Source: Mobula hypostoma
Taxonomy: Eukaryota
Assembly (NCBI RefSeq): GCF_963921235.1
Contig: NC_086097.1
Coordinates: 107,200,001-107,264,000, forward strand
Reading direction: 5' to 3'
Length of the DNA: 64,000 nucleotides
Part shown: positions 9,839 through 55,609 of the stretch, in pieces
How positions within the stretch are numbered: the stretch's first letter is position 1
How the letters are laid out: each line of letters starts with the position of its first letter
Notes under the pieces: generated by a model
What the model saw: only the letters and a program-made list of their open reading frames with translations
Databases searched by the model: none
Told to the model about the DNA's origin: nothing
Program-made: the position numbers and the translations under genes

Positions 9839-10136
9839 GAACTGGAGGAAGAGTTAGTAAGAGATTTGAAAGTGGGAGGGGGAGGGGGAGATCCAAAATG
9901 ATAGGAGAACACAGGAGGGGGAGGGATGGAGCCAAGAGCTGGACAGGTGATAGGCAAAGGGGATACGAGAGGATCATGGGACAGGAGGTCCGGGGAGAAA
10001 GACAAGCGGGGGGGGGGTAACCCAGAGGATGGGCAAGGGGTATAGTCAAAGGGACAGAGGGAGAAAAAGGAGAGTGAGAGAAAGAATGTGTGTATAAAAA
10101 TAAATAACGGATGGGGTATGAGGGGGAGGTGGGACA

Positions 10137-10529
10137 TTAGCGGAAGTTAGAAAAGTCGATGTTCATGCCATCAGGTTGGAGGCTACCCAGATGGAATATA
10201 AGGTGTTGTTCCTCCAACCTGAGTGTGGCTTCATCTTTGCAGTAGAGGAGACCGTGGATAGACATGTCAGAATGGGAATGGGATGTGGAATTAAAATGTG
10301 TGGCCACTGGGAGATCCTGCTTTCTCTGGCGGACAGAGTGTAGGTGTTCAGCAAAGCGGTCTCCCAGTCTGCGTTGGGTCTCGCCAATATATAGAAGGCC
10401 ACATCGGGAGCACCGGACGCAATATATCACCCCAGCCGACTCACAGGTGACGTGTTGCCTCACCTGGAAGGACTGTCTGGGGCCCTGAATGGTGGTAAGG
10501 GAGGAAGTGTAAGGGCATGTGTAGCACAT
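10137..10529 (-). pseudogene. PLE GIY-YIG endonuclease domain (inverted copy)
   Basis: C.TC...TCESAGVIYCVRCSRCGLLYIGETQRRLGDRFAEH...HF motifs. Confidence 0.85.
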
Positions 10530-10548
10530 GTTCTGCTTACAAGGATAA

Positions 10549-11432: not shown

Positions 11433-11726
11433 TGCCCCACCTCCCCCTCGTACCCCATCCGTTATTTATTTTTATACACACATTCTTTCTCTCACTCTCC
11501 TTTTTCTCCCTATGTCCCTCTGACTATACTCCTTGCCCATCCTCTGGGTTACCCCCCGCTTGTCTTTCTCCCCGGACCTCCTGTCCCATGATCCTCTCAT
11601 ATCCCCTTTGCCAATCACCTGTCCAGCTCTTGACTCCATCCCTCCCCCTCCTGTCTTCTCCTATTATTTCGGATCTCCCCCTCCCCCTCCCACTTTCAAA
11701 TCTCTTACTAACTCTTCCTCCAGTTC

Positions 11727-11762
11727 GTCCTGACGAAGGGTCTCGGCCTGAAACGTCGACTG
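11727..11762 (+). ncRNA. Minimal hammerhead ribozyme (PLE-associated)
   Basis: CUGACGA 11730-11736, helix II AGG/CCU, GAAA 11750-11753, palindromic ACGU in place of helix III, GUC triplet ending 11757, helix I GUC/GAC. Confidence 0.75.
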
Positions 11763-12397
11763 TACCTCTTCCTAGAGATGCTGCCTGGCCTGCTGCGTTC
11801 ACCAGCAACTTTGACATAAGACAAAAGAAGGTGGCTCTGGTTATTGTAAAGTCAAATCAATTCAGCCCCAGGACACAGATTCAGGTGTTCCCCAGGGACA
11901 GAGTCCTCAGCCTAATAATCTTCAGCTATGTCATCAATGAGCTGCCCTTTCCCAAAAATTCAGAATGGAGGATGGACACTGCTCATAGTGGCATTGTTTA
12001 GTTCCATTCAGAATTTACACTTAATAACATTATCTGGAACTTGAAAACAAACCAGTGTCAGGAATGGTGACTGATTGTTATAAAAGACTAATTGACTCAC
12101 CAATGTCTTTCAGGGGAGGAGATCTACCTTCTTTGATCTGATCTGCATGTGTCTCCAGACCCATAGCAAGGTGGTTGATTCCGAACTAACTGCTCTCTGA
12201 AATAGTGAGTCGATCTTATAATAGATAGTTGTCTCACAACTTGCAACCAGAAAAAAAGTTAAACCTGATTGACTTCCAGGCATTCATCTTATGTCGAGTT
12301 TGAACAGGAGAACATCACTCTCATTTCAGTTGACCTTATAGAATTCTTCTTGCAAATATCTGGATACTGTTATTGCAATATGGAGAGCTGGCCCACA

Positions 12398-12900: not shown

Positions 12901-12950
<50 letters not shown>

Positions 12951-13065
12951 CTTATTGTAATTTATAGTTTCTTTATAATTATATATTGCAATATATTGCT
13001 ATTACAAAACAACAAATTTCACGACAAATAGCACTAATATTAAACCTGATTCTGATTCTGATTCT
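12398..13065 (+). mobile_element. Rex1/Babar LINE 3' fragment with (TG)n at ~12913-12947
   Basis: EWCHNNHLAFKVNKTKELIVNFRK peptide; (TGATTC)n tail. Confidence 0.8.
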
Positions 13066-18171: not shown

Positions 18172-20679
18172 ATAGAAACATAGAAACATAGAAAATAGGT
18201 GCAGGAGTAGGCCATTCGGCCCTTCGAGCCTGCACCGCCATTTATTATGATCATGGCTGATCATCCAACTCAGAACCCAGCCTTCCCTCCATACCCCCTG
18301 ACCCCTGTAGCCACAAGGGCCATATCTAACTTCCTTTTAAACATAGCTAATGAACTGGCCTCAACAGTTTGCTGTGGCAGAGAATTCCACAGATTCACCA
18401 CTCTCTGTGTGAAGAAGTTTTTCCTAACCTCGGTCCTAAAAGGCTTCCCCTCTATCCTCAAACTGTGACCCCTCGTTCTAGACCTCCCCAACATCGGGAA
18501 CAATCTTCCTGCATCTAGCCTGTCCAATCCCTTTAGGATCTTATACGTTTCAATCAGATCCCCCCTCAATCTTCTAAATTCCAACGAGTACAAGCCCAGT
18601 TCATCCAGTCTTTCTTCATATGAAAGACCTGCCATCCCAGGAATCAATCTGGTGAACCTTCTTTGTACTCCCTCTATGGCAAAGATGTCTTTCCTCAGAT
18701 TAGGGGACCAAAACTGCACACAATACTCCAGGTGTGGTCTCACCAAGGCCTTGTACAACTGCAGTAGTACCTCCCTGCTCCTGTACTCGAATCCTCTCGC
18801 TATAAATGCCAGCATACCGTTCGCCTTTTTCACCGCCTGCTGTACCTGCATGCCCACTTTCAATGACTGGTGTATAATGACACCCAGGTCTCGTTGCACC
18901 TCCCCTTTTCCTAATCGGCCACCATTCAGATAATAATCTGTTTTCCTATTTTTGCCACCAAAGTGGATAACTTCACATTTATCCACATTAAATTGCATCT
19001 GCCATGAGTTTGCCCACTCACCCAACCTATCCAAGTCACCCTGCATCCTCTTAGCATCCTCCTCACTGCTAACACTGCCACCCAGCTTCGTGTCATCCGC
19101 AAACTTGGAGATGCTGCATTTAATTCCCTCATCCAAGTCATTAATATATATTGTAAACAACTGGGGTCCCAGCACTGAGCCTTGCGGTACCCCACTAGTC
19201 ACCGCCTGCCATTCTGAAAAGGTCCCGTTTATTCCCACTCTTTGCTTCCTGTCTGCTAACCAATTCTCCACCCACACCAATACCTTACCCCCAATACCGT
19301 GTGCTTTAAGTTTGCACACTAATCTCCTATGTGGGACCTTGTCAAAAGCCTTTTGAAAATCCAAATATACCACATCCACTGGTTCTCCCCTATCCACTCT
19401 ACTAGTTACATCCTCAAAAAATTCTATGAGATTCGTCAGACATGATTTTCCTTTCACAAATCCATGCTGACTTTGTCCGATCATTTCACCGCTTTCCAAA
19501 TGTGCTGTTATCACATCCTTGATAACTGACTCCAGCAGTTTCCCCACCACCGACGTTAGGCTAACCGGCCTATAATTCCCCGGTTTCTCTCTCCCTCCTT
19601 TTTTAAAAAGTGGGGTTACATTAGCCACCCTCCAATCCTCAGGAACTAGTCCAGAATCTAACGAGTTTTGAAAAATTATCACTAATGCATCCACTATTTC
19701 TTGGGCCACTTCCTTAAGCACTCTGGGATGCAGACCATCTGGCCCTGGGGATTTATCTGCCTTCAATCCCTTCAATTTACCTAACACCACTTCCCTACTA
19801 ACATGTATTTCGCTCAGTTCCTCCATCTCACTGGACCCTCTGTCCCTTACTATTTCTGGAAGATTATTTATGTCCTCCTTAGTGAAGACAGAACCAAAGT
19901 AATTATTCAATTGGTCTGCCATGTCCTTGCTCCCCATAATCAATTCACCTGTTTCTGTTTGCAGGGGACCTACATTTGTCTTTATCAGTCTTTTCCTTTT
20001 TACATATCTATAAAAGCTTTTACAGTCCGTTTTTATGTTCTCTGCCAGTTTTCTCTCATAATCTTTTTTCCCCTTCCTAATTAAGCCCTTTGTCCTCCTC
20101 TGCTGAACTCTGAATTTCTCCCAGTCCTCAGGTGAGCCACTTTCTCTGGCTAATTTGTATGCTACTTCTTTGGAATTGATACTATCCCTAATTTCTCTTG
20201 TCAGCCACGGGTGCACTACCTTCCTTGATTTATTCTTTTGCCAAACTGGGATGAACAATTGTTGTAGTTCATCCATGCAACCTTTAAATGCCTGCCATTG
20301 CATATCCACCGTCAATCCTTGAAGTGTCATTTGCCAGTCTATCTTAGCTAATTCATGTCTCATACCTTCAAAGTTACCCCTCTTTAAGTTCAGAACCTTT
20401 GTTTCTGAATTAACTACGTCACTCTCCATGTTAATGAAGAATTCCACCATATTATGGTCACTCTTACCCAAGGGGCCTCTCACGACAAGATCGCTAATTA
20501 ACCCTTCCTCATTGCTCAAAACCCAGTCCAGAATAGCCTGCTCTCTAGTCGGTTCCTCGACATGTTGGTTCAAAAAACCATCCCGCATACATTCCAAGAA
20601 ATCCTCTTCCTCAGCACCTTTACCAATTTGGTTCACCCAGTCTACATGTAGATTGAAGTCACCCATTATAACTGCTGTA
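18172..20679 (-). mobile_element. Young CR1 (HER1-like) LINE, 5'-truncated
   Basis: Uninterrupted ORF2 segment, 3' hairpin and (TTTCTATG)n tail; near-identical to three other copies in the window. Confidence 0.95.
18270..20666 (-). CDS. CR1 ORF2 (partial APE + intact reverse transcriptase), 798 aa, N-terminally truncated
   Basis: [26 protein letters not shown] and KFADDTK all intact with no stops. Confidence 0.88.
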   Translation of the reverse strand: MGDFNLHVDWVNQIGKGAEEEDFLECMRDGFLNQHVEEPTREQAILDWVLSNEEGLISDLVVRGPLGKSDHNMVEFFINMESDVVNSETKVLNLKRGNFEGMRHELAKIDWQMTLQGLTVDMQWQAFKGCMDELQQLFIPVWQKNKSRKVVHPWLTREIRDSINSKEVAYKLARESGSPEDWEKFRVQQRRTKGLIRKGKKDYERKLAENIKTDCKSFYRYVKRKRLIKTNVGPLQTETGELIMGSKDMADQLNNYFGSVFTKEDINNLPEIVRDRGSSEMEELSEIHVSREVVLGKLKGLKADKSPGPDGLHPRVLKEVAQEIVDALVIIFQNSLDSGLVPEDWRVANVTPLFKKGGREKPGNYRPVSLTSVVGKLLESVIKDVITAHLESGEMIGQSQHGFVKGKSCLTNLIEFFEDVTSRVDRGEPVDVVYLDFQKAFDKVPHRRLVCKLKAHGIGGKVLVWVENWLADRKQRVGINGTFSEWQAVTSGVPQGSVLGPQLFTIYINDLDEGIKCSISKFADDTKLGGSVSSEEDAKRMQGDLDRLGEWANSWQMQFNVDKCEVIHFGGKNRKTDYYLNGGRLGKGEVQRDLGVIIHQSLKVGMQVQQAVKKANGMLAFIARGFEYRSREVLLQLYKALVRPHLEYCVQFWSPNLRKDIFAIEGVQRRFTRLIPGMAGLSYEERLDELGLYSLEFRRLRGDLIETYKILKGLDRLDAGRLFPMLGRSRTRGHSLRIEGKPFRTEVRKNFFTQRVVNLWNSLPQQTVEASSLAMFKRKLDMALVATGVRGYGGKAGF

Positions 20680-21068
20680 TATAAGGATAACTATGGACCT
20701 TGCAGGAGAGTAAACTAGTGCAGGGTAGGAACTAAGGAGAGTTAATTGCGAACAGCTGCTCTTGGCCAAGTCCATAACTGACATGTGGAGAGTGTTTAAA
20801 GACCAACTGCACAAATTACAGGGCAGGGATATTTCAGTGAGAAGGAGGCACAAGGATAGCAAGGTAAGAGAACATTGGATGTTCAGGGAGGTGATAAATT
20901 TAGTCAAGAAGTAAAAGAAAACGTATGTAAAGCTTAGGAAACTAGAATCATATAGGGCCCTTGAAGATTGTAAAGACGCCAGAAAAGTATTCAAGAAGGG
21001 AATTAGGAAAGCAAGGAGGGACCATGAAAAGTTCTTGGCAAGTAGAATTAAAGAAAATACTAAGCATT

Positions 21069-23093: not shown

Positions 23094-24000
23094 GCAGTGT
23101 TGGCAGTGAGGAGGATGCTAAGAGGATGCAGGGTGACTTGGATAGGTTGGGTGAGTGGGCAAACTCATGGCAGATGCAATTTAATGTGGATAAATGTGAA
23201 GTTATCCACTTTGGTGGCAAAAATAGGAAAACAGATTATTATCTGAATGGTGGCCGATTAGGAAAAGGGGAGGTGCAACGAGACCTGGGTGTCATTATAC
23301 ACCAGTCATTGAAAGTGGGCATGCAGGTACAGCAGGCGGTGAAAAAGGCGAATGGTATGCTGGCATTTATAGCGAGAGGATTCGAGTACAGGAGCAGGGA
23401 GGTACTACTGCAGTTGTACAAGGCCTTGGTGAGACCACACCTGGAGTATTGTGTGCAGTTTTGGTCCCATAATCTGAGGAAAGACATCTTTGCCATAGAG
23501 GGAGTACAAAGAAGGTTCACCAGATTGATTCCTGGGATGGCAGGTCTTTCATATGAAGAAAGACTGGATGAACTGGGCTTGTACTCGTTGGAATTTAGAA
23601 GATTGAGGGGGGATCTGATTGAAACGTATAAGATCCTAAAGGGATTGGACAGGCTAGATGCGGGAAGATTGTTCCCGATGTTGGGGAGGTCCAGAACGAG
23701 GGGTCACAGTTTGAGGATAGAGGGGAAGCCTTTTAGGACCGAGATGAGGAAAAACTTCTTCACACAGAGAGTGGTGAATCTGTGGAATTCTCTGCCACAG
23801 CAAACTGTTGAGGCCAGTTCATTGGCTATGTTTAAAAGGAAGTTAGATATGGCCCTTGTGGCTACAGGGGTCAGGGGGTATGGAGGGAAGGCTGGGTTCT
23901 GAGTTGGATGATCAGCCATGATCATAATAAATGGCGGTGCAGGCTCGAAGGGCCAAATGGCCTACTCCTGCACCTATTTTCTATGTTTCTATGTTTCTAT
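23094..24000 (+). mobile_element. Young CR1 3' fragment (ORF 23126-23902)
   Basis: Protein nearly identical to the C-terminal 258 aa of ORF 18270-20666; (TTTCTATG)n tail. Confidence 0.95.
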
Positions 24001-24549
24001 ATAGAGGTTTATCAGAATGCTGTCTAGACCAGAGGGCATGTGCTATAACAAGAGGTAGGATAACCTTTATCTGGAGCAGCTGAGAGGAGGTCTGCTAAAG
24101 TGTTATAAGGTTATGAGAGGCATAGAACGAATAGACAGACATTATCTTTTTCCAGGGTTGAAGTGAAGTGTCTAACACTGGATGGCATGCACTTAAGGTG
24201 AAAGGGGATAGGTTCAAAGAAGATGTGGGGGGCATGTTTTTTTTTACACAGAGTGCTGGGTGCCTGGAACCTCCTGCCCCAGTGGTGGTAGTGGCAGATA
24301 TTTTAAGGACTTTTAAGAAACACTTAGCTAGTAGACAAATGTAAATAAAATGGGAGGATGTGGACATTGTGCAGGAAGAAGGGATTAATTTTAGTTGGAC
24401 ATTTGATTACTAATTCAATTGTTCTGGCACAACATAGTGCGCCAAAGGGCCTGTGCCTGTGCTCTACTGTTCTATGTTCTTGTATCACTTCAAACGTTTC
24501 TGGATTGATATGAACTTGCAACTTCTTAGCTCTTATTGTGACCTACAAC

Positions 24550-34131: not shown

Positions 34132-35318
34132 CCAATCATAAACAAAAAAAAAATCTGCAGATGCTGGAAATCCAAGCAACACACACAAAATGCTAGAGGA
34201 ACTCAGCAGGCCAGACAGCATCTATGGAAAAGAGTACAGTCAACGTTTCAGGCCGAGGTTCTTCATCAGGACTGGAGAAAAAAAAGATGAAAGAGCCAGA
34301 GTAAGAAGGTGGGGGGAGGCAAGGAAGAAACACAAGGTTATAGGTGAAACCAGGAGCGGGGGGGCGGGGGTCAATGTCTTCCTTCTTCAAAGAAAGGGGC
34401 TTCCCTTCTTCCACTTTCAATGCTGCCCTCAACCACATCTCTTCCATTTTGGGCACATCTGCCCTTACCCCACCCTCCCACCACCCCACCAAGTAGACTG
34501 TTCCTCTTGTCTTCACCTACCACCTCACCAGCCTCCACGTCCAGCACATAATTCTCTGTAACATCCTCCATCTCCAATAGGATCCCACCACATCTTTCCC
34601 TCCCACTTTCTGCTTTCTGCAGTGATTGGTCCCTATGCAACTCCCTTGTCTATTTGTCCCTCCCCCACTGATCTCCCTCCTGGCACTTATCCTTGCAAGT
34701 GGAACAAGTGCTACACCTGCCCTACACCTTCTGCCTCTCTATCATTCAGGACTCTAAACAGTCCTTCCAGGTGACATGACACATCACCTGTGAGTCTGTT
34801 GGAGTCTGTGGTATCCGGTGCTCCTGGCGTGGCCTCCTGTATGTCAGTGAAACCTGACATAGATAGGGAGACTGCCTTGCTGAACACCTATGCTCCATCC
34901 ACCAGAAAAAAAATGGGATCTCCCAGTGGACACCCATTGTAATTCCACTTTCCATTCCCATTCTGACATGTTAGTCCATGGCCTTCTCTACTGTCATGAA
35001 GAGGCCACATCAGTTTGGAGGAGCAACACCTTATATTCCATTTGGGTAACCTCCAAACTGATGGCATGAACATAGATATCTCGATCTTCTGGTTATGCCT
35101 CCAGCCCCCGCCCGCAACTTCACTATTCCACGTTCCCATTTCCCTCTCTCACCTTATCTCCTTACCTGCCCATCACTTCTGGTGCTCCTTCTTTTCTTTC
35201 GTCCATAGCCTTCTGTCCTCTCCTATCAGATTCCCCCTTCTCTAGCCCAGTCGACTGTTTACTCTTTTCCATAGATGCTGCCTGCCCTGCTGAGTTCCTC
35301 CAGCATTTTGTGTGTGTT
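34132..35318. mobile_element. Penelope-like element with short inverted arm (34132-~34370 minus; ~34371-35318 plus)
   Basis: EEQHLIFHLGNLQTDGMNIDI peptide; 14-bp TSD AGTTTaATAGTAAT / AGTTTgATAGTAAT (34118-34131 / 35319-35332). Confidence 0.85.
34237..34274 (-). ncRNA. Minimal hammerhead ribozyme with weakened helix II
   Basis: Minus strand: CAGTC-CTGATGA-AGAACCTCGGCCT-GAAA-CGTT-GACTG; perfect 5-bp helix I. Confidence 0.6.
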
Positions 35319-39744: not shown

Positions 39745-40452
39745 GGAGTCCTTTGCAGGATTCCCGAGGTTAAAATGCAGGTTGAATCTGTGGTGAGGAA
39801 TGCAATGTTAGCATTCACTTCAAGAGGACTAGAATATAAAGCAAGGATGTAATGTTGAGGTTTTATAAGGCATGAGTGAGGCTTCACTGGGAGTATTGTG
39901 AATAGTTTTAAGATCCTTATCTAAGAAAGGATGTGCTGACATTGGGGAGGGTTCAAAGGAGGTTCACAAAAATGATTCTGGGATTGAAAGCTTGTCATAT
40001 GAGAAGCATTTGATGGCTCTGGGCCTCTACTCACTGGAATTCAGAAGAATGAGGGGTGACCTCAATGAATCCTATAAAATGTTGAGAGACTTCGATAGAG
40101 TGGATGTGGAGAGGATGTTTTATATGGTGGGGAAGTCTAAGACCAAAGGGCATAGCCTCAGAATAGAGGGACACCTTTTTAGAATGGAGATAAGGAGGAA
40201 TTTCTTTAGCCAGAGAGTGGTGAATCTTTGGAATTCATTGCCACAGGTGGCTGTGGAGGCCAAGTCATTGCGTCTATTTAAGGGAGAGGTTGATAGATTC
40301 TTGATTAGTCAGGGTATGAAGGGATACGGGGTGAAGGCAGGAGATTGGGTCTGAGAGGGAAAATGGATCAGCCATGATAAAATGGTGGAGCAGACTCAAT
40401 GGGCCAAATGGCCTAATTCTGCTCCTATATCTTATGGTCTTGTGGTCTTATG
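39745..40452 (+). mobile_element. CR1 3' fragment
   Basis: ORF 39992-40354 LGLYSLEFRRMRGDL..FFSQRVVNLWNSLPQ; (TCTTATGG)-type tail. Confidence 0.88.
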
Positions 40453-41915
40453 ATTGGAAAAAAAGCAAACATAGGCAGAACCAGTGAGCTCTTCCAAAAC
40501 AAAGACATAACCTGTAGATTTGGTAGCATCATTTTAAATTGATTATCAACAATAGCACTGACCATAAGGCCTAAAGGACCCTTAGATAAGATTTGTTTAT
40601 TAATTTAAAGAATTAGCAACTCATTCTTTCCAATTTCTGAATAACCTGACAATTTCTCCATTTGTCATTTTCTCGTTAAAAATCCATTTATCTCAAAACG
40701 TATTTTGAGTGATTTCATGGGTGGGTCCAAAATTTATTTTATTGCCATCTAGCATATAGAACCTAGGAAGTGAATTTATAAGATGTTCATGTATAAGTAA
40801 GAATTCAAAAGAACCAAGGTGCAAGATTGCACTGAAAAAAATATTGGAGTACGGCATTTCTACGGACAATGTCAAGAAGAGTGCAAACTGCATTCTCCTC
40901 TTAAACCACAGTACTTTCCTTCTCACTGTGGTAGAGTCGTGTGACTGTCAATACAGTGTTCACTTGCCAGCAACGGCACTTCTCAGGATAAACAACTTAA
41001 CCTCTGGAATGTTGATTTCCCTCCAAGATTCTTCCGCTGGGTGTCCACTGTATGTGATGATTTGGATTACATATGAAAAATGTACGAGCCATTGTGAGCA
41101 GACGCTATACATGAAGTGTTATACTGAGATTAGGAAGTTCTGTGCAATAGACAAAGAATTGGTTTATTTCAAAAGGAAACATTTTAAAATAAAAGTGATG
41201 TTCGAAAGTATTTATCATTGAATTATATATGTTTGTGGTAGATAAAGGATTAATTTGAAATCTGTGAATCAACAAAATTATTTGTGTTTTGGCACAGAAA
41301 TATGGCAATTACAATGATTACAGTGGTGCTTAAGAGTTGCAATATTAATTTGATGATACTAATTTTGTATCAAAGCTTAAATTTGTGACAAAGTACGGAT
41401 TTTCAATCCTTGCCTTTCCCAATTGTAAGTCTAATGTTGTAGTGAGGCTGTTATATCTTTCCCTACTAGAACAGAAGATTTATCAGGTTAGTGGCATTGT
41501 TGGGCAAATGATGATTTAACAAATCTCAGCTGGCATGAAAATTGGACATTATATTTGGTTTCAGCAGCACAATGTTAGTCTGGGGGAAAGAAGTCTGTTT
41601 TTTTTCTTTGTTATAAGTTCCCTCGCCAATATTGGAAATAGGCATGTGTTGATTCTAATGAAGGTGAGAGTGGGTTTTGCTGTTAAGGGCAAGGCCATTG
41701 ATCGCCTGTTCACTGAACACTTGTAAGGCTAAATAGAGGGCACTTCATCTTGGACATAATACCCTCAAACAAGTATAAAGAACATGGGGGATTTCTACTG
41801 TTCAGATAAAAAAGAAAAAACACAGATTTTTACAGATTACATGTTTTTTTTGTTTCAGTATATTGGCATCCACATTGTGTTTCACGATGTCAAAAATGAG
41901 TCACTTTATTCAGAA

Positions 41916-42078
41916 ACACGAGAAAGTCTGCAGATGCTGGAAATCCAAAGCAACTCGCACAAAATAATGGAGGAACTCAGCAGGTCAGGCAGCATCTATG
42001 GAAATGAATAGATGCTTCGGGCCAAGACCCTTCATCAGGACTGAGAAGGAAGGGGGATGATGCCAGAATAAAAAGGCA
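41916..42078 (-). mobile_element. 163-bp PLE 3' mini-insertion with decayed hammerhead (GAAG for GAAA)
   Basis: 11-bp TSD TTTATTCAGAA (41905-41915 / 42079-42089). Confidence 0.8.
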
Positions 42079-44404
42079 TTTATTCAGAACACCTTTGTAC
42101 TACTAATTAAATGAGAGCATTTGAAACTGCTTTTCATACACTTTCATGTTGCCACACTGGAATTTTGTTCTGATTCTCTGTGGGGCAAAAATGAATTTGT
42201 ATCACTCTAAATGCCACCCCACCTAATGGCAGCTGGTTTTATTATAACACATTGACTACATATAGCATCGCTGCTAGGTCAAAGGGCATTGTGTTGCAAA
42301 CCAAAATATAATTTGTTTCTCTGAATTTTAAGTGAGCCATAGGCTATCCAAGTCATACTTTAGAAAATGTTAAGTATATTCAAATGAAGAAAATCACATT
42401 ACAATGTCATTTCTTTCTTTATTGTGTGGTCATCAAATCCATAAAGTAGAACATCTAGATTTTTAAGCTATTTTCGGGTTCCAGATATTGCTTGATGGAT
42501 GGTTAGGAAACCTCTGGCAAACATCTATTTTGGGCAGTGATTTATGTGTTCCACTCTCTGATCTTTATGCCAGCAATCTCTTCAGGGGATTGATTTTATT
42601 TTCCAACAGTGAAGGAGGTGGTTGCTGCCACCTTGCATGGTTCTGCATCGGATGATAGCTTTTTGTATTCTCCTCGTCATGTCTGAACCTGGTGGCATTT
42701 TCATGGGATCATTGATGAGGTGTGGTTTATTTTATAAAGCTTAACTGAACATTAAAAATGCTCTAACTACAAGTTAAATAGTTACTTCCAAAATCACACC
42801 ATTAAATCTGTCATCTTGTGTTTCTCTGCTTGTAACAAGGAAGCATAATTTTTAATAGTAATATTTTATTAATTTTTTAAAAAGATGATAAAATCATTAA
42901 GGAATAACTTCAAGTGCTTCATACAAAGGTCTGGAAAGTAGTAAATGCCATCTAATAACTTGGAGCAGTGTGCAGTTGATATTGAAATAAAACTAAATAG
43001 AACATAGAACATAGAACATAGAAAATTATACACAATATTCTTATATTCTCCCACCAAGGCAAAACAGTGTTTAATAATTCAATTATGTATTTTGAATTTT
43101 ACTGTACACAACATATAAACAAATTTATTTCCTTATTATTCATCGTTTAATGCATTAAAATATGGTTGATTAAATTCAGGAAGTCAAAATACCAGATTCA
43201 AAATACTTCCAATACTCTTCACCTTGAAATTGACACAATTGTGTTACTTTCAAACTGAAAATGTATGCTCCCTTTATAAAGGGAAGCAATCATAATTTAT
43301 AATCAAATAAGAAGCCAGTTGTTGAATTGGAAGTATTGTCTAATCTTTAGATTCACATTTTTTTTATGAAACAATCAAACTACAATCTTACCTGTTATCA
43401 ACTCCAGCTAAACTAGTGTTTGCATTGCAATTTTATAATTATGTTTGAGTAAATAATTAAGTATTTTTTTTAAAAAACTACAGTACTTTAAGAAAAGACT
43501 AAATGTGTTAATTCAGATAATTTTGAACAGCAGCTTTTTGTCTGTATTTTGAATTACTGGTATTTACATGCATTCAAGTTTTATCTTTGACATGGTTCTG
43601 TGCTAAAAAAGCCTGTTTGACATGCAATGATTTAAATTTCAAACATTAACCATGTATTATTCTTTAAATATCCATCACCCTTCGCTGACTGTAGACTGAA
43701 ACATTAGAGTCTGCCCATAAACTTAAAAAATGCATACTTTGTCAGCACTTTTAAACTGCTGTGTACCAGGACAAGTTTCAGGATACTCACAATATCAGTG
43801 ATTTACCATTGCAAATATGATTATTCTGCCAAAATGGAGAAAAATCTTCCAGAGAACAAAGTCACTCTAAGAAGCTTGATCAGTGTGGAAAGATTTTTCT
43901 GTCCTTCTCATGGATTAGGTGTCATTCTACTCCCTTGAGCTGAAGCATGGATTTGCAGTTCAGTCCATTTGCAGAGTCTATATATGCTCGTGTAATGGAC
44001 AAGCACCAAGGGAGTACATGTTACCAAAGAAATTCCATTGAAGAATAAAGGCTTGACACTGGCAAGTTGTAATTACAGAATATGTATAGTTGTCTAACAT
44101 AATGTGTCAATTAAATATTAAATCAGTGTTGGTAAACAACTAAAGCCTTCTATCAAAATAATTATTTATAAAAACATAAAATTTTACAATTTTTTTTCAT
44201 AGTAATAGGATTGCAGTTTCAGTGTTGAAATGCTTTGTCCTATTGTTGAAGTATTTTTTGATTTTTGTGATTGTTTTCTATGTATAAATATTATATTCTC
44301 ATAAAGACATCAGAAATAATCATAACATTAGATGGGCTGTTTTATTAAGATGTAAACTGGATACCTTTTGTACTCAATCATTTTTATGTAAACAAACTTT
44401 GTAA

Positions 44405-44410
44405 AATAAA
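44405..44410 (+). promoter_or_regulatory. Candidate polyadenylation signal
   Basis: AATAAA preceded by several TGTA motifs and followed by a T/GT-rich tract, near the end of a repeat-poor AT-rich stretch. Confidence 0.3.
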
Positions 44411-44680
44411 ATTTATATTTGTCCTGGCCTTTTGCTAAAATTATTGATGACAATGAAAAAATACTCGCCAAAAATAGCTGAAGAAAATTATATTTCCTAA
44501 TTATATTTTAACAGTACAATTACCTATACACCTGTAAAATTATGATGAAATACTCAACTGACATGTACCTATATCTGTCTTTAAAGGTGAAAGACATTGA
44601 GAGAACTCGGAGAATATTAAAATATCATTCGATAGCCTGCCTTACTAAGTGCATTAATATAAGTGCATACCACTTAAAAA

Positions 44681-44691
44681 TAAATAAATAA

Positions 44692-44744
<53 letters not shown>
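44681..44744. repeat. (TAAA)n(TA)n microsatellite
   Basis: Directly visible. Confidence 0.95.
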
Positions 44745-44749
<5 letters not shown>

Positions 44750-45897
44750 CAAGAAATAACTTCTATTGTGACAATTATAGGTAAGGTTTTTTTAGTGTTA
44801 TCTTGGGCAAAATAGCTGCTGTATTCTTAAAATATAGCTGATACTTTTTATTTCATAAGTTTAACCTGCAAGTAGATTTTATTTTTAGAGGTCTTAGAAG
44901 ACTATACAGTGCTATGCACTGAAAATCTAAAAGTAATCAAGTAGGTATAAGTTCTACATGATATTAAATCATTTTATATAGATATTCATTCTGATTCTTT
45001 TGCATGTTAAAACAGTAATGCATTGTGATAGTCACATTAGAATGTGAACACAGATGAAAGTCATGGTTTCCATTTAATTTTATAACCCATTCTGATATCT
45101 TTAAGATGCGGATATAAATTTGTGTGATTTTTAGTTGTGCATAAACGATCTCATTAAAATTATTATGGTGTCATAAATCTTCCAACAAAATGATGCTGAA
45201 CAGTACAGTAGAAATTTTATGGAATCAGTTCATATCAAATGCAATTAAGTGTGCTTGGAAGTTTATTTGTGCAAATCTAGATGAAGTAAATTGAATATTA
45301 AAAAATAATAGTTCTCACCAGAAAGAGTAAGTACTGTGGTCGATGCATATATGTGTGAGCAGCTTATGCTGAAAGAGCTATAATTAAGAGTTACTATAAC
45401 AATGCCTACTGTATCCAAACTACGGTCTTTGAAAAAAAATCTCCATAAAATATTTGCTGTGAAATGCAGTGATAGTGAAAGATTCCACGTGCAATTCTCA
45501 AGGGGTTGGTGTGCAGTAAAAGAGATTATTGGGATAATACTTCCAGTATTTCTACCTAAACAGAACACTTAAGTGTCAGCTTAGAAAATACATTTATTTG
45601 TAAAAATAATTTCTAAAAAAAATATGATTAATCTTCCACCTTAGGCAATTCCTCAAATTAATAACTGTCTCTTGATTTCTACATCCCAATCATCACCCAG
45701 TATGATTCTCAAAATTCAGTATTGTACTACTTTGGTACTTACCGCTTTGCAATGCATGAAAGAATTACTTACATTAAAATGCTTTACATAACCTCATGGT
45801 GCCTCATATGCTTTAGAGCCAATAATTTAGCTTTGAAGTGTAACTGTCGCAATATGAATTAAGTATCAGCCAATTTGCACAAGCAAACTCCCATAAC

Positions 45898-46448
45898 CAG
45901 AATCAGAATCAGGTTTAATATCACTGGCAAGTGTCATGAAATGTGTTGCTTTGTGGCAGCAATATGTTGCAATATATAATAATAGAAAAAAAGGTGAATT
46001 ACAATAAGTATATATGAATCTATATGTATAGTTATATTAAATAAGTAGAGCAAAAATAAAAATTTCAAATAGTGGTAAGGTAGTGTTCATGGGTTCAATG
46101 TCCATTCAGAAATCAGACAGTAGAAGGGAAGAAGCTGTTCCTGAATCATTGAGTGTGTGCCTTCAGGCTTCTGTACCTCCTTCCTGATGGTAGCAATGAG
46201 AAGAGGGTATATCCAGGGTGATGGGGGTATGGGGGTCCTTAATGATAGATGCCACCTTTTTGAGGCATCGCTCCTTGAAGATGTCCCGGATACTATGGAG
46301 ACCAGTGCCCATGATGGAGCTGTCTAAGTTTATAACTCTCTGCGGCTTATTTCAATCCTGTGCAGTAGCCACCCCTCACCCCGCCCATACCAGACAGTGA
46401 TGCAGCCAGTTAGAATGCTCTCCACGGTACATCTTAGAAATTTGTAGA
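45898..46448 (-). mobile_element. Rex1/Babar 3' fragment
   Basis: (CAGAAT)n tail; FLRCTVESILTGCITVWYG peptide. Confidence 0.8.
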
Positions 46449-46529
46449 AACAGAATTGTAGAAATGATTGTTTAATGAGTATTATTATTGACAAGGTCAT
46501 CAAAGATGACAATTCTTTATAAGTATATA

Positions 46530-47410
46530 TTAAGTTTTAATGAATGCAGAAAGTTGGGATAAACGAGTCACTTTCTGATTGGTGAAGTACTATGAAAAGG
46601 GATCGGTGCTGGGCCTCTGCCATATGCAATTTTTCAATAACTTAGGTGAAGGCGCTGATGGATTTACATTCAAGTTTTTTTAATGATACAGAGATTGGTT
46701 AGAAAGTAAATTTAATGAAACGCCATTAAATATGCCAAGTAGTTGGGAAGAAGTGAGGCTATCTATTTGGTTCAGAAGATTATACAAGCAGATTATCGGT
46801 GTTTAGAGTAACCTGCTGTTGATGTACATGTAACAGAGAAAGTTAACATCCAGGTACTGGAAATAATTACGAATGCAAGCAGATTATTGTCCTTTTTAAT
46901 ACAAAGATGATGAATCAGGGCTTTGACTGTACCTGGACTTCTCAAATAGTTTTGGTCTCCTTATTTAAGAAGAGACACATTTAACTTGGAAGCAGTGCAG
47001 AGAAGCTTTGTGATATTGATTCTTGGATTAAAAGGTTTTCTGATGAGGTGAGATAGATATCATTAGCCCTATACGCTCTATAGGTAAGAAGAAAGATTTT
47101 GTGTATCATGTTACCAGTGTGACTAAGATTATGAGGGGTCCTTACAGCATGATTTCCCACATATGAGTTATCTAGAACCAGGGAGTTTATTCTCTCAGCA
47201 TGTTTTGAATCTTTGCAACACTCTAAGGGCTGAGGAAGCTGAATCATGAAACACGTTCAAAACTGAGACAGGGAGATTTTCAAATTTTACAGGGATCAAA
47301 GGAAGTGGAGCTGAGAACAAAATCAGATCAGTTGTAATCTTAATAAATGGCAAGATGGTCTCTAGAAGCCATATGGTCTACTCCTTCTCTTATTTATTTT
47401 GCCCTTATGT
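46530..47410 (+). mobile_element. Very old CR1 3' fragment
   Basis: TTTTGGTCTCCTTATTTAAGAAG (FWSPYLR) and a CR1-like terminal hairpin at ~47345-47405. Confidence 0.55.
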
Positions 47411-49334
47411 TTGGAAAGGTGACAGGCTCTCAGTTCTCTAATGGAGTGACAACCTATGGTACTGTGCTCAGTTCTCTAGAGTGGGATTTAAGTGCACAAT
47501 ATTGTGATTCAAGCAAGTGTACCACTCATTAAATGATTACTGACACTCATAACTGTACTCACTATCTTTTAATAGAGTATACTTATTGTTGTGTTACCAT
47601 TAAAGTTTTTACTTATACAAAAATATTTTCTAATATTTTTGTGTTTTGTAGACAACCAGAGCTATTGGCTCATGTAAAACATGATAATTACTGTGATCAT
47701 TGTCCTTGATACACAAATACTTCTTTTCATCTTTTAATTTTAATTACTGTTTTATTGGCATTAGTTAAAGATCATCACCAAACATCAATGTTATGACTAG
47801 GCTGAATGCATCAAGAATACTATGTTGCAAAAACACAATCAAAATATTGCTGCAACACTTGTGAAACCTGTTGTGTGTATTTAATGTTTTCATTTATTAG
47901 AAAACAAAAGCATAGAAGGGAAAATTAGAAATTGATATTGATGTATTCCAACGAAAATTATAACAATTCCATGAAAGGGATTGTATGTTGTTTAGATATT
48001 TGGAAAATTGTCGACACTGTTCTGTAGGAATAATGAACAATAGTATTAGAAGTAAACATACTTCAATGATTGAAATGTATCATCTTGAATTTTAGGATAA
48101 AAAAATTCTCACACTATTTAGCAATAGGAGAAGCTGAATATTTTTGTATACTGCTGTTAGATTTAAATTAAATTCCTACCAAGTTTAATTAATTGTGACT
48201 AAGCAGAGAAAAGGGCAGTAAAATTCAGCTTAATTCTGTAGATATTACCATGATATAGGAGCCATAGGTGAATTTTTGCAATTTTTCTACTCTCGACAAG
48301 TTACTGATTTTGGATACTGTGCACTGCAATCTTTGATAATATGAGATAAGCATTCATATTAATAATCTGAACTCAGTGATCGGCTTATATCAAAGCCTGT
48401 ATTGTAGTAAGAAATTTGGAATTGTTATCATTCCTCAGCAGGCATCTTCTGAGCAACTCATTTAATTTTTCACGATGATAAGTTCTTTTACATGATGCAA
48501 ATGCATGGTAATTTCATTGGAAAAGGGTTGCCAATTACTGCCTTGTAAACTCCAGTCCTCCGGAGTGATCTATGCAAACAGGAAGCACTTTCAATTTGCT
48601 GCGGCTGTCCTACTGTCTTAGATCAAGGAGCTGATTGCTGGTGTTTGCAAGAAAAAAATTAATCCATTTAACAATCTGTGGCTTAAACTTAAGGATTTTC
48701 AGGGTTTTTTTCAGAATATCAATATGTTCCAATTCAAGAGCGGATTCCTTGCATTCAGGCATCCGCTGGTGATAACAGACGAGTTGGCATGAAGAGAGGC
48801 AGAGATGGATTAATTATGCAGAGAACATGGAAATTTCAGCTTATCATCGACCAGCAAAGGAGCCGAGCTCACATAATCAGCAAACGAGAAACACAATGCA
48901 ATGGCACGTTCAAGGCAACCAGAGAGCATATTACACATTAGATTCTTCCTGAAATTAAAAAATATATAGATAAATGGCAAAGGGAACTAAACGATGTTAA
49001 AATAAATTAATGAGAAGTGTTTCTTCAAGATATATTCTCTCCAAAATCAATTTCTTATTAACAAATGTGGGGAATTTTTAAAACGTATATACAATGCAGC
49101 ATGTTAAATCACCATTAAGTACAGGAAAAAATGCTTCTGCCACATATTATTGTGTAGCACAAATATGCCTAAGAAAGTGACGACATTCAGCTTTCTGTAA
49201 ACTCATTCATCTCATCTGAGAGTTGGGAGAGGGTTTTTGTAGTGGTGGGGATAGCTGTTTTATATAGCAGATAATAATTAGCATAAGGGGGGAAGTGCAC
49301 AAAATGTCACCGTGTATTGCCAGTGCCATCTTAG

Positions 49335-49940
49335 AAAGTTTGGAAAGGGTCAGCAACTTTAAATTCCTCAGTGTTATCATTTCAGAGGATCTGTCCTGGG
49401 CCCAGCATGTAAGTGGCATCACAAAGAAAACATGGCAGCATCTCTACTTTCTTAAAAGTTTATGAAAATTCGGTATGTCATCTAAAGCTTTGGCAAACTT
49501 CTATAGATGCTCAATGGAGAGTACACTAACCGGTTGCATCACAGCCCGGTAAGGAAACACCCTCAAAAAGTCGTGGATCTCGGGACTGGGTTTACTCAGT
49601 CCATCACGGGTAAAGCTCTCCCCATCACTGAGCCTACCTCCAAGAGGTGCTGTCGCAGGAAAACAGCATCCATCATCAAGGACCCTTACCATTCAGACAT
49701 GTTTTCATCTCACCGCTGCCATCAGGAAGTTGCTACAGGAGCCTCAGGACACACAGCAACAGGTCCAGGAATTACTCCTCAACAATCAGACTCTTGAACA
49801 GAGGAAATAACTTCACCCAACCACACTCACCCCATTCACTTTCAAGGACTCTTTGTCTCATGTTCATAATATTTATTGCTTATTTATTTATTACTTTTTT
49901 TTTTCTTTTTGTATTTGCACAGTTTGTTGTCTTTTGTTAT
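49335..49940 (+). mobile_element. Rex1/Babar 3' fragment
   Basis: AACTTTAAATTCCTC..GAGGATCTGTCCTGGGCCCAGCA; RKTASIIKDPYH peptide. Confidence 0.8.
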
Positions 49941-51545
49941 CCTTGTAAAGGAGTGGCTGAGTCGATTGTTGCTAATGGACGTTTAATTTAAATCTTTTCA
50001 AACACAAATGTAAAATTTAAAACAATTCAAACAAACAGTACTTTGAAATAATCCACTAGACATTTTCACAAAGAAAAATTTCTCATTGACTTAATATTAC
50101 AGGTTTGGATAAAATTGAATTTGTTTTGATATTGGATAAAAATCCAGATTCTTTTAGGAGCAAATCTTCTAATTTCTTAGCAGTTTTCCGTTTTGCAATA
50201 AAAGACTTTGCTGCAAAGTTTTAATTTCTGCCACTTCCTAGGGGAAGATTGTATGTTAACATAATATTATTCTTCTCTGGATGGTTGAAGGTACGCCTGA
50301 AGGAAGTAAATGGCCTATGTGTTGCATGTAATTATAATTTGGAGCACTGTTTGTATTTGCTGTAGGTCAGGTACATTTTCAATCATTGGCTGTGTGGACA
50401 CCCAGACAAGGGATGATATGGTTTGGGAAAATATTACAGAATATGTACTACATTTTTGGAGATTTTAAAATATTCATCACTGACTTAATGTACAAAGCTT
50501 ATCCTGGTATTTTCCTGTTACTATTCTCAGTACCTATTAGCAGAAATGATATTGACTATTTGTATATTTTTCTCTTACACTGGCATGGTGCTCATAGATT
50601 TACAAGTAACACAATTCAAACATTAGTTTTGTCGGTGATATTTTACATATTTTACATCATCTAAATGTTCACCGATGATGCAGATACTTCTGTACATTCT
50701 TGTATATTTTGACACCATTTTTGATGGAAAGTTGTCTATGTATGTTTTGTTTGCAAACAGCAAGACACATTCAGTCTAGCAAATTACTGCTTATTGATAT
50801 TACCATTAATTATCTGCAAAGTGATGAAAGATGTTATTGATAATGCAATAAAACAGAATTTATTCCCCAATAACCAATGCTCACTTTGGGTTTTGTCAGG
50901 AACATTTTGCTCCAGACCTCATTAAACCTTGATGAAAACATGAAGCAAAGAGCTGCATTTGGAGAAGTGATGTGAGAGTGATTGTTCTGGATACCAAGTA
51001 AGAACTTGACTGTGCGCTGTCAAGGAGTCCTAATATGATAGAAGTTCATGGACTTCAGGGGAAAATACTCCTACAGATGGAGTCATAATCTCATTCATGG
51101 CAAGATGATCGTGATTGCGGAAATTCACCACACCAGTTACTGGGCATCAATGCAAAATTTCATCAGGGAAGTTTCCTTGTTGCTTCATCAATAACATTTC
51201 TTCTATGTACACTGATGATCATGCAGTGACCTATTTAATTTGCTGCTGTCCAGGTTCATGTCTCAAGACAAAGCAATGTTGAGGCAGGGATTGATAAGTG
51301 GCATGGCAAATTCATGCAACAAAGATGTACTTTGTCCATCTCTGGCAAGAAACATTACCATCTCAATGGTCAATATTCTTGGAATCACCATTGACCAGAA
51401 ACCCAGAAAAAACAACTCACATAAAATTTCAGGTTACAAAAATCAGATCAGAATCAGGTTTAATATCACTGGCATATGTTGTAAAATCTGTTGTCTTTGC
51501 GGCAGTGATACAATGCAGTACATAATAGAGAAAAGAAAACCGAAT

Positions 51546-51548
<3 letters not shown>

Positions 51549-51599
<51 letters not shown>
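51549..51599. repeat. (CA)n microsatellite in a Rex 3' tail fragment (51445-51548)
   Basis: Directly visible. Confidence 0.95.
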
Positions 51600-51603
<4 letters not shown>

Positions 51604-51721
51604 TATACAATTGAAGTCAGAAGTTTACATACACCTTAGCCAAATACACTTAAACTCAGTTTTTCTACAATTCCTGACATTTAATCCTAGAAAACATCCC
51701 CTATCTTAGGTCAGTTAGGAT

Positions 51722-53878
51722 CATAGAAACATAGAAACATAGAAAATAGGTGCAGGAGTAGGCCATTCGGCCCTTCGAGCCTGCACCGCCATTTATTATG
51801 ATCATGGCTGATCATCCAACTCAGAACCCAGCCTTCCCTCCATAGCCCCTGACCCCTGTAGCCACAAGGGCCATATCTAACTTCCTTTTAAACATAGCTA
51901 ATGAACTGGCCTCAACAGTTTGCTGTGGCAGAGAATTCCACAGATTCACCACTCTCTGTGTGAAGAAGTTTTTCCTACTCTCGGTCCTAAAAGGCTTCCC
52001 CTCTATCCTCAAACTGTGACCCCTCGTTCTGGACCTCCCCAACATCGGGAACAATCTTCCCGCATCTAGCCTGTCCAATCCCTTTAGGATCTTATACGTT
52101 TCAATCAGATCCCCCCTCAATCTTCTAAATTCCAACGAGTACAAGCCCAGTTCATCCAGTCTTTCTTCATATGAAAGTCCTGCCATCCCAGGAATCAATC
52201 TGGTGAACCTTCTTTGTACTCCCTCTATGGCAAAGATGTCTTTCCTCAGATTAGGGGACCAAAACTGCACACAATACTCCAGGTGTGGTCTCACCAAGGC
52301 CTTGTACAACTGCAGTAGTACCTCCCTGCTCCTGTACTCGAATCCTCTCGCTATAAATGCCAGCATACCGTTCGCCTTTTTCACCGCCTGCTGTACCTGC
52401 ATGCCCACTTTCAATGACTGGTGTATAATGACACCCAGGTCTCGTTGCACCTCCCCTTTTCCTAATCGGCCACCATTCAGATAATAATCTGTTTTCCTAT
52501 TTTTGCCACCAAAGTGGATAACTTCACATTTATCCACATTAAATTGCATCTGCCATGAGTTTGCCCACTCACCCAACCTATCCAAGTCACCCTGCATCCT
52601 CTTAGCATCCTCCTCACTGCTAACACTGCCACCCAGCTTCGTGTCATCCGCAAACTTGGAGATGCTGCATTTAATTCCCTCATCCAAGTCATTAATATAT
52701 ATTGTAAACAACTGGGGTCCCAGCACTGAGCCTTGCAGTACCCCACTAGTCACCGCCTGCCATTCTGAAAAGGTCCCGTTTATTCCCACTCTTTGCTTCC
52801 TGTCTGCTAACCAATTCTCCACCCACACCAATACCTTACCCCCAATACCGTGTGCTTTAAGTTTGCACACTAATCTCCTGTGTGGGACCTTGTCAAAAGC
52901 CTTTTGAAAATCCAAATATACCACATCCACTGGTTCTCCCCTATCCACTCTACTAGTTACATCCTCAAAAAATTCTATGAGATTCGTCAGACATGATTTT
53001 CCTTTCACAAATCCATGCTGACTTTGTCCGATCATTTCACCACTTTCCAAATGTGCTGTTATCACATCCTTGATAACTGACTCCAGCAGTTTCCCCACCA
53101 CCGACGTTAGGCTAACCGGCCTATAATTCCCCGGTTTCTCTCTCCCTCCTTTTTTAAAAAGTGGGGTTACATTAGCCACCCTCCAATCCTCAGGAACTAG
53201 TCCAGAATCTAACGAGTTTTGAAAAATTATCACTAATGCATCCACTATTTCTTGGGCTACTTCCTTAAGCACTCTGGGATGCAGACCATCTGGCCCTGGG
53301 GATTTATCTGCCTTCAATCCCTTCAATTTACCTAACACCACTTCCCTACTAACATGTATTTCGCTCAGTTCCTCCATCTCACTGGACCCTCTGTCCCTTA
53401 CTATTTCTGGAAGATTATTTATGTCCTCCTTAGTGAAGACAGAACCAAAGTAATTATTCAATTGGTCTGCCATGTCCTTGCTCCCCATAATCAATTCACC
53501 TGTTTCTGTCTGCAGGGGACCTACATTTGTCTTTATCAGTCTTTTCCTTTTTACATATCTATAAAAGCTTTTACAGTCCGTTTTTATGTTCTCTGCCAGT
53601 TTTCTCTCATAATCTTTTTTCCCCTTCCTAATTAAGCCCTTTGTCCTCCTCTGCTGAACTCTGAATTTCTCCCAGTCCTCAGGTGAGCCACTTTCTCTGG
53701 CTAATTTGTATGCTACTTCTTTGGAATTGATACTATCCCTAATTTCTCTTGTCAGCCACGGGTGCACTACCTTCCTTGATTTATTCTTTTGCCAAACTGG
53801 GATGAACAATTGTTGTAGTTCATCCATGCGATCTTTAAATGCTTGCCATTGCATATCCACCGTCAATCCTTTAAGTGT
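51722..53878 (-). mobile_element. Young CR1 LINE inserted inside the Tc1 inverted repeat
   Basis: Near-identical to 18172-20330; (TTTCTATG)n tail. Confidence 0.95.
51821..53866 (-). CDS. CR1 ORF2 reverse transcriptase region, 681 aa, 5'-truncated
   Basis: Open frame with KFADDTK; GVPQG reads GVLQG. Confidence 0.85.
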   Translation of the reverse strand: MTVDMQWQAFKDRMDELQQLFIPVWQKNKSRKVVHPWLTREIRDSINSKEVAYKLARESGSPEDWEKFRVQQRRTKGLIRKGKKDYERKLAENIKTDCKSFYRYVKRKRLIKTNVGPLQTETGELIMGSKDMADQLNNYFGSVFTKEDINNLPEIVRDRGSSEMEELSEIHVSREVVLGKLKGLKADKSPGPDGLHPRVLKEVAQEIVDALVIIFQNSLDSGLVPEDWRVANVTPLFKKGGREKPGNYRPVSLTSVVGKLLESVIKDVITAHLESGEMIGQSQHGFVKGKSCLTNLIEFFEDVTSRVDRGEPVDVVYLDFQKAFDKVPHRRLVCKLKAHGIGGKVLVWVENWLADRKQRVGINGTFSEWQAVTSGVLQGSVLGPQLFTIYINDLDEGIKCSISKFADDTKLGGSVSSEEDAKRMQGDLDRLGEWANSWQMQFNVDKCEVIHFGGKNRKTDYYLNGGRLGKGEVQRDLGVIIHQSLKVGMQVQQAVKKANGMLAFIARGFEYRSREVLLQLYKALVRPHLEYCVQFWSPNLRKDIFAIEGVQRRFTRLIPGMAGLSYEERLDELGLYSLEFRRLRGDLIETYKILKGLDRLDAGRLFPMLGRSRTRGHSLRIEGKPFRTESRKNFFTQRVVNLWNSLPQQTVEASSLAMFKRKLDMALVATGVRGYGGKAGF

Positions 53879-53952
53879 AGAGAGAATGATTTATTTAACC
53901 TTTTATTTCTTTCATCACTTTCCCAGTGGGTCAGAAGTTTACATACACTTTG

Positions 53953-54135
53953 TTAGTATTCAGTAGCATTGCCTTTAAATTGTTTAACTTGGGTCAAACA
54001 TTTTGGGTAGCTTTCCACAAGCTTCTTACAGTAAGCTGCTGGAATTTTGTTCCATTCCTCCAGACAGAACTGATGTAACTGAGTCAGGTTTGTAGGCCTC
54101 CTTGCTCGCACACGCTTTTTCAGTTCTGTCCACAA
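53953..54135 (-). pseudogene. Tc1 transposase C-terminal 60 aa
   Basis: WTELKKRVRARRPTNLTQLHQFCLEEWNKI...LTQVKQFKGNATEY*, matching the Sleeping Beauty C-terminus as recalled. Confidence 0.9.
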
Positions 54136-54152
54136 ATTTTCTATCTGGATAT

Positions 54153-54380
54153 TTCTGTGGAGTTTGCATGTTCTTACCTTGAGCTTGTTTCCTGTTTTGT
54201 CCCAAAGACGTACTGGTAAATAGGCTGCGATAAATTATCCCTTATCATCAGTAAATGACAAAATATAAAAAGGATTATGGGTTGATAGGCGTGTGCGAGA
54301 GAATAAATAGAACCAGTTTAGATAGGAAGCTTGGTTGGTATGGATGAGTTTGGCCGTTTTTCCATGCTGTGTGACTCTAC
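54153..54380 (+). mobile_element. Decayed V-SINE-like fragment
   Basis: TCTGTGGAGTTTGCATGTTCT core; CR1-like end TTCCATGCTGTGTGACTCTA. Confidence 0.5.
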
Positions 54381-54748: not shown

Positions 54749-55609
54749 TGGGTGAGTGGGCAAACTCATGGCAGATGCAATTTAATGTGGATAAATGTGA
54801 AGTTATCCACTTTGGTGGCAAAAATAGGAAAACAGATTATTATCTGAATGGTGGCCGATTAGGAAAAGGGGAGGTGCAACGAGACCTGGGTGTCATTATA
54901 CACCAGTCATTGAAAGTGGGCATGCAGGTACAGCAGGCGGTGAAAAAGGCGAACGGTATGCTGGCATTTATAGCGAGAGGATTCGAGTACAGGAGCAGGG
55001 AGGTACTACTGCAGTTGTACAAGGCCTTGGTGAGACCACACCTGGAGTATTGTGTGCAGTTTTGGTCCCCTAATCTGAGGAAAGACATCTTTGCCATAGA
55101 GGGAGTACAAAGAAGGTTCACCAGATTGATTCCTGGGATGGCAGGACTTTCATATGAAGAAAGACTGGATGAACTGGGCTTGTACTCGTTGGAATTTAGA
55201 AGATTGAGGGGGGATCTGATTGAAACGTATAAGATCCTAAAGGGATTGGACAGGCTAGATGCGGGAAGATTGTTCCCGATGTTGGGGAGGTCTAGAACGA
55301 GGGGTCACAGTTTGAGGATAGAGGGGAAGCCTTTTAGGACCGAGGTTAGGAAAAACTTCTTCACACAGAGAGTGGTGAATCTGTGGAATTCTCTGCCACA
55401 GCAAACTGTTGAGGCCAGTTCATTAGCTATGTTTAAAAGGAAGTTAGATATGGCCCTTGTGGCTACAGGGGTCAGGGGGTATGGAGGGAAGGCTGGGTTC
55501 TGAGTTGGATGATCAGCCATGATCATAATAAATGGCGGTGCAGGCTCGAAGGGCCGAATGGCCTACTCCTGCACCTATTTTCTATGTTTCTATGTTTCTA
55601 TGTTTCTAT
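54749..55609 (+). mobile_element. Young CR1 3' fragment (ORF 54748-55503)
   Basis: Protein matches the C-terminus of ORF 18270-20666; (TTTCTATG)n tail. Confidence 0.95.

Follow-up and report, generated by a model that had tools for sequence, protein, structure and literature searches.

The locus described here raises the question of how one end of a Tc1 transposon closely resembling Sleeping Beauty (SB) came to lie in the DNA of a probable ray, and whether it got there by descent or by horizontal transfer. It lies in a stretch of 64 kb, called the window below, which was analysed at its full length. A first-pass annotation had proposed it as a candidate for horizontal transfer in a probable cartilaginous fish.

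The locus is a real, dead SB-clade Tc1 fragment, made up of the right IR/DR and the final 63 codons of the transposase (table 1). The TA target and the outer and inner direct repeats (DRs) sharing a core, all pointed out at first pass, are present, and a search of both strands of the 64-kb window finds the 19-mer forming the DR core, GTCAGAAGTTTACATACAC, at two places only, 51616 and 53930. The outer 116 bp, 37 bp now missing (a length inferred from the reference element L001, below) and a further 72 bp, up to where the inner DR core ends, add up to a right TIR of 225 bp. In Tc1/DD34E elements of the IR/DR type the TIR is described as about 220 bp long and as holding two DRs, outer and inner (PMC7827188), and the window copy, with 225 bp and both cores, has this architecture. 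The transposase frame runs from 54144 to 53956 on the minus strand and encodes 63 residues, where 60 had been counted at first, followed by a stop codon at 53955–53953. Of the span originally given to the element, 51608–54146, the start stands, whereas homology ceases at 54144 and the 2.15 kb between the two pieces belongs to a CR1 LINE. A TA is seen at the one surviving end, and the other end of the element is absent from the window; the element on the second reference, L002, likewise terminates on TA. No further piece of the 1646-bp element (its left 1.2 kb) was found anywhere in the 64-kb window. Only SB residues 278–340 are left: the peptide keeps E279, which we take to be catalytic in the SB transposase, while both aspartates and the DNA-binding domain are deleted. 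SB transposition is reported to require all four DRs (PMC7827188), so a copy with one end is immobile, and judged from its sequence the window copy can neither make transposase nor be mobilised.

Table 1. Features of the transposon relic and its surroundings (window coordinates).
Feature	Position	Strand	Evidence and remarks
Landing site of the transposon: an older host repeat with a (CA)n tract at its end	51441..51605	.	77–79% identity to window 12914–13063 and 45902–46001
TA target dinucleotide	51606..51607	.	ATATA context; read directly; partner TA at the opposite end lost
Element terminus CAATTGAAG	starts 51608	right end of a minus-strand element	Read from the sequence
Right IR/DR, outer 116 bp (terminus and outer DR, core 51616–51634)	51608..51723	-	Aligned to L001 over 116 columns with 7 mismatches and 1 gap
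5'-truncated CR1 LINE inside the IR	51723..53878	-	Reverse transcriptase frame 51821–53890; 3' tail of 8-bp units 51723–51745
Right IR/DR, inner part with inner DR (core 53930–53948)	53877..53952	-	73/79 bases identical to L001 over 53877–53955
SB-clade transposase end, 63 codons and stop (SB residues 278–340), dead fragment	53953..54144	-	Identity to L001 171/189 bases and 52/63 residues; to P0002 55/63 residues
Unrelated DNA past the break	54145..54330	.	Unlike the L001 upstream transposase; single copy in the window; resembles, we assume, a decayed V-SINE/HE1-type core

The fragment's identity as SB is evident in both protein and DNA. The window peptide matches SB100X (PDB 5CR4, residues 168–230) with E = 1.3e-29 and 52 of 63 residues identical (82.5%, counted from the alignment), which agrees with the four-fifths proposed at first pass, and SB100X is the sole distinct PDB sequence matched among 177,635. 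A metagenome scan gave at least five loci from 591 stretches; among the loci listed, the SB-type ones were the contigs L001 and L002 only, which served as DNA references, their tie to salmonids running through near-identical named proteins. L001 carries a full-length element (1609–3254, 1646 bp) with both IR/DRs and a 340-codon frame that corresponds almost letter for letter to four SB structure entries. Proteins identical or nearly identical to those of L001 and L002 are named from the SB vector, Salmo, Oncorhynchus and Coregonus. The two references differ by 0.8%, which indicates that the SB-type family is young in their host. On L001 (1–3297) the intact SB-type element adjoins another Tc1-like element (approx. 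41–1608, opposite strand) with short terminal repeats.

Aligned separately to L001 by blastn, the two window pieces gave 244/268 (E 2e-107) and 111/119 (E 2e-47) identical positions, approximately 92% overall. The outer piece is 93% identical to the right IR of L001 and 74% to its left IR. K2P distances from L001 are 0.103 for the coding part (189 bases), 0.080 for the inner non-coding part (79 bases) and 0.064 for the outer IR (115 bases); dS and dN are 0.115 and 0.098 against L001, and 0.089 and 0.113 against L002 (approx. 42 synonymous sites with 3.5–4.5 changes). The IR spacer and synonymous sites are therefore as close to L001 as the coding sites. Of the non-coding IR columns, 181/195 are identical to L001, or 144/157 once the two DR cores are removed (counted from the alignment), so binding-site constraint does not explain the likeness of the IR. 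The closeness of the right IR/DR to SB, proposed at first pass, is thus borne out on alignment: the DNA is 91–93% identical, the IR is as conserved as the coding part, and low identity is ruled out.

SB10, SB100X and the salmonid-type elements (L001 and L002; Salmo, Oncorhynchus, Coregonus) share with the window the right end of about 225 bp with its IR/DR architecture, the DR cores and the TA target; the window copy differs in being one-ended, dead and in a probable ray, and also in its peptide. Residues 26, 28, 32, 35, 36, 37 and 40 of the 63-residue stretch were taken as diagnostic. The commonest pattern there among the aligned matches at 65% identity or more, seen in 141 of them, is L-Q-A-H-P-T-G, which is that of SB, whereas the window has F-L-N-P-A-A-K. 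It shares F26, P35 and A36 with elements of Prochilodus, Sparus and Sander; K10, T21 and K54 are among the residues it has in common with salmonid SB. On these residues the copy is assigned to a sister subfamily of salmonid SB, so that the salmonid-derived match first proposed does not establish a salmonid donor. A copy of salmonid SB proper was considered and rejected, as F26/P35/A36 are shared with non-salmonid teleost elements and the L-Q-A-H-P-T-G pattern is absent.

The top-identity match to the peptide is a protein of Mobula hypostoma, P0002 (XP_062905703.1), with 55/63 residues identical (87%), and it alone among 418 aligned proteins shares F26, L28, N32, P35 and A36 with the window; the subfamily is shared with Mobula. 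The record is TTC33 isoform X3; the last exon predicted for it consists of this transposase end and carries the same diagnostics. The record is labelled in the database as a host protein, not a transposon, and represents a locus different from that of the window, where no TTC33 exons were found in the 64 kb. Its tail, KVYVNF, is encodable by the window bases after the stop; L001 gives a stop there. The TTC33 model with its transposase-end exon could reflect exonisation or an annotation artefact. The shared diagnostics point to a ray-associated subfamily in at least two loci, the ray copies seen being two, the window and P0002, the latter as a protein only. A further protein, P0308, is also close to the window peptide (86%). 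In a tree of the 63 residues (23 rows), the window and Mobula group at 85/74 and the salmonid-type rows separate at 94/93, in a topology that is mostly unresolved. In a 'fibrillin-2' model of Trichomycterus rosablanca (P0243, XP_062858538.1), a nearly complete SB-clade transposase forms the start and is joined to EGF-like repeats; the model is likely to be a chimera, and possibly a real fusion.

The surroundings of the copy bear on whether it belongs to the genome in which it was assembled. Its terminus lies on a TA just behind the (CA)n tract of the older host repeat, and in the relative of that repeat at 12.9 kb (CA)n is followed by (TA)n at the corresponding place. This position fits the reported preference of SB for insertion into AT repeats (PMC9777934). 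Beyond the break, past 54144, no continuation of the host repeat was detected in the window. The CR1 nested in the IR is 99.3% identical over 2156 bp to window 18172–20327. At its insertion site 37 bp of the IR are gone, there is no target duplication, and the 5' junction has a 2-bp overlap. L001 carries 37 bases between the counterparts of the two window pieces, and contigs from four sequencing runs join 51723 to 53877–53883 with other letters between; both indicate that the CR1 replaced 37 bp. At positions 6, 37, 40, 45, 49 and 62 the window peptide has residues seen in neither L001 nor the Mobula copy (those two agreeing or also differing), and these six private residues suggest that decay of the copy predated the CR1.

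Four copies of the CR1 family are present within 38 kb (18172–20690, 23094–24001, 51723–53878 and 54749–55608), with ORFs of up to 806 codons. They differ from one another at 2–8 of 853 sites, which marks the CR1 as young, and by this measure its burst is probably very recent or ongoing. The copies at 51723–53878 and 54749–55608 form an 860-bp inverted pair flanking the transposase fragment.

Contamination or chimerism could in principle have brought salmonid or vector DNA into the contig, and the best-matching sequencing runs do come from other organisms rich in SB proper, although none holds half of the sampled words. We nevertheless regard such an assembly artefact as very improbable, as the piece lies 7–9% from SB, against a difference of 0.8% between SB-type copies, is interrupted by a CR1 with three near-identical copies elsewhere in the window, ends on a TA within a host repeat and shares its diagnostics with an independent Mobula record. 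Of the 24 sequencing runs listed, none contains half of the words and none is from a ray. The four that were examined cover the transposon parts only (6–8 of 30 bins), with the flanks uncovered, and their variant letters follow L001, so that they represent other organisms and are uninformative on the host. The plasmid collection gave no match to the element, there were no relatives among 475 and 25 pattern matches from prokaryote and viral contigs, respectively, and Rfam yielded no match in the window.

The cartilaginous-fish origin of the DNA, only probable at first pass, is supported indirectly by chondrichthyan relatives of the CR1 together with the subfamily shared with Mobula hypostoma; a bony-fish host, which would have refuted the first-pass reading, is not indicated. 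Among the best 120 of 6,982 CR1 protein matches, the species-assigned ones above 70% identity are from Leucoraja (79%), Hypanus (76% and 71%) and Chiloscyllium (75%), and other database CR1 proteins are closer to the window CR1 (82–89%). Within the same 120, a Mobula birostris protein reaches only 58%, and bird and turtle proteins lie mostly at 40–57%, with 54–55% at best on comparable long stretches among those checked. Chondrichthyan CR1s are reported to form one clade and CR1 transfer to be rare, and CR1s are present in ray-finned fishes too (PMC13343379). The DNA could instead come from some other CR1-rich vertebrate, for instance a ray-finned fish outside the teleosts, in which case the transfer would span a shorter distance or belong to a type already catalogued; in view of the chondrichthyan CR1 matches and the subfamily shared with Mobula, we consider this very unlikely. 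Two CR1 reverse transcriptases labelled bacterial (P0156 and P0218; Carnobacterium, Symploca) probably reflect animal DNA in those assemblies.

Elsewhere in the window, no host exons were evident on inspection among 121 short frames listed in 40400–51600. The segment 40500–48600 is AT-rich (28–37% GC) and repeat-poor; host exons or conserved non-coding sequence may lie in it. An 800-bp inverted pair (9751–10553 and 11016–11814, 95.8%), which we presume to carry Penelope-like GIY-YIG frames, has a third relative at 34374–35109, and a 430-bp imperfect palindrome at 2464–2894 (71% self-complementary) is possibly a MITE.

With the host probably a ray and the DNA references of salmonid type, a DNA identity of about 92% is far too close for shared descent, which makes a crossing between bony fishes and rays very likely. 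The split between bony and cartilaginous fishes is placed at 473 My (supplement tree, PMC7070016), and at the vertebrate synonymous rate of 3.1e-9 per site per year given in the same study, neutral sequence would have accumulated about 2.9 changes per site over that time, that is, reached saturation. The observed distance of about 0.085 would need a rate of 9e-11 per site per year on both branches. Set against the quoted rate, this makes horizontal transfer the best reading, and the earlier argument that conservation of neutral IR DNA is hard to square with vertical descent holds up, given non-coding K2P distances of 0.064–0.080 and the rate they would need. Published criteria for transfer demand a TE Ks below 99.5% of core-gene Ks, a split of more than 120 My and an alignment of at least 300 bp at 75% or more (Zhang et al. 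2020, PMC7070016). The split, the identity and the total length (384 columns, in two pieces) lie within these limits, and the rate calculation was used in place of the core-gene Ks distribution.

Vertical descent with very slow divergence and no transfer would draw on the very low shark mutation rate (7e-10 per generation, PMC10587355), under which the ray branch could be short. The teleost branch could not, and the argument leans on that branch: at the quoted rate it alone would be expected to carry about 1.5 changes per site. Zhang et al. (PMC7070016) caution that slow divergence can make some TE copies look like transfers and for this reason disregarded splits under 120 My, but the present split is about four times that cut-off. 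A second 63-residue tree, a 14-row subset of the first tree's 23 with the unnamed SB-clade rows left out, leaves the placement open and does not reject teleost monophyly (p-AU 0.336), as descent would allow. Against it stand the IR spacer and synonymous sites, which are as close as coding sites, and the 0.8% difference between L001 and L002, which marks a young family in its host. TcMar elements, moreover, are nearly missing from sharks and the chimaera (0.14% and 0.03% of the genome, compared with 3.28% for skates and 2.30% for rays; PMC12361510), a distribution among cartilaginous fishes that is patchy at the level of the superfamily. Taken with these observations, unbroken descent appears extremely unlikely, and we hold with considerable confidence that an SB-clade element moved horizontally between bony-fish and ray lineages. 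With the general rate its split from SB would fall at 14 My, with 1e-9 at 43 My and with 3e-10 at 142 My; these are dates of the split, not of the transfer, and the slow shark clock widens the range.

The survey of Jia et al. (2022) assigns SB to 107 ray-finned species and a single mollusc; for Chondrichthyes it lists only a ZB-like element, in one species, and neither SB nor SB-like (PMC9777934). In its figure list, eels, tarpon and tunas are placed close to the salmonids. In that survey coding identity exceeds 80% within SB, compared with 61% to SB-like elements, and TIR identity is 65% within SB and 33% to SB-like (PMC9777934). The window copy falls inside both SB ranges, with 171/189 coding bases (90.5%, 3' end only) and 181/195 non-coding columns identical to L001, and differs from the surveyed members in having a probable ray as host. 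The 975 transfers of Zhang et al. (2020) involve ray-finned fishes in 93.7% of cases; of five cartilaginous names sought among their 307 genomes, only Callorhinchus and Rhincodon appear in the available part of the source, so rays look like a blind spot of that screen (PMC7070016). The TcMar excess of skates and rays is described in PMC12361510 and its preprint, where SB, in the portions available, is named only as a TcMar subtype; the word 'horizontal' is absent from the corresponding text of the journal version. The terms sought are absent from the text of PMC12400950 and the genus names sought from its supplements, and Tc1 goes unmentioned in the available text of PMC12946260. We found no account of SB or Tc1 elements entering sharks or rays by transfer in the open-access literature; repeat libraries such as Repbase and Dfam may already contain the window's SB family.

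Tc1 transfer among fishes is already well known, and the present case adds a host range. The DTSsa1-like Tc1 element shared by teleosts and lampreys (Kuraku et al. 2012, PMC3516227) similarly crossed a deep split between aquatic vertebrates. That case differs in concerning another Tc1 family, in its identity of 95–99% and in a parasite–host link, whereas no vector is evident here.

A history consistent with these observations would begin with an SB-clade Tc1/DD34E element crossing between bony-fish and ray lineages long after their split, directly or via a third carrier. It would then have spread in the ray lineage by cut-and-paste, with the transposase binding each IR at its inner and its outer DR, excising the element and inserting it at TA. 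The window copy would have inserted at a TA next to the (CA)n tract that ends an older repeat; a deletion would have taken away its left 1.2 kb, and the copy would have decayed; a young CR1 LINE would later have entered the right IR and removed 37 bp. We infer that the deletion of the left end preceded the CR1 insertion.

The locus itself is ordinary debris. Its significance is that it adds cartilaginous fishes, for which the dedicated 2022 survey lists none (PMC9777934), to the hosts of the best-known transposon tool for vertebrates, and that it offers a testable origin for the TcMar excess of skates and rays, which PMC12361510, in the text available, does not treat as transfer. It also points to a natural sister of the SB transposase that would be worth mining. 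As a tentative proposal, and one we think rather less probable than its negation, the TcMar burst of skates and rays (2–3% of the genome) could go back to horizontal invasions by bony-fish elements, among them the one that became the distinct ray SB subfamily; ray genomes, being slow to decay, may then still hold intact or near-intact natural SB-type transposases, or might even be the reservoir from which teleosts acquired theirs.
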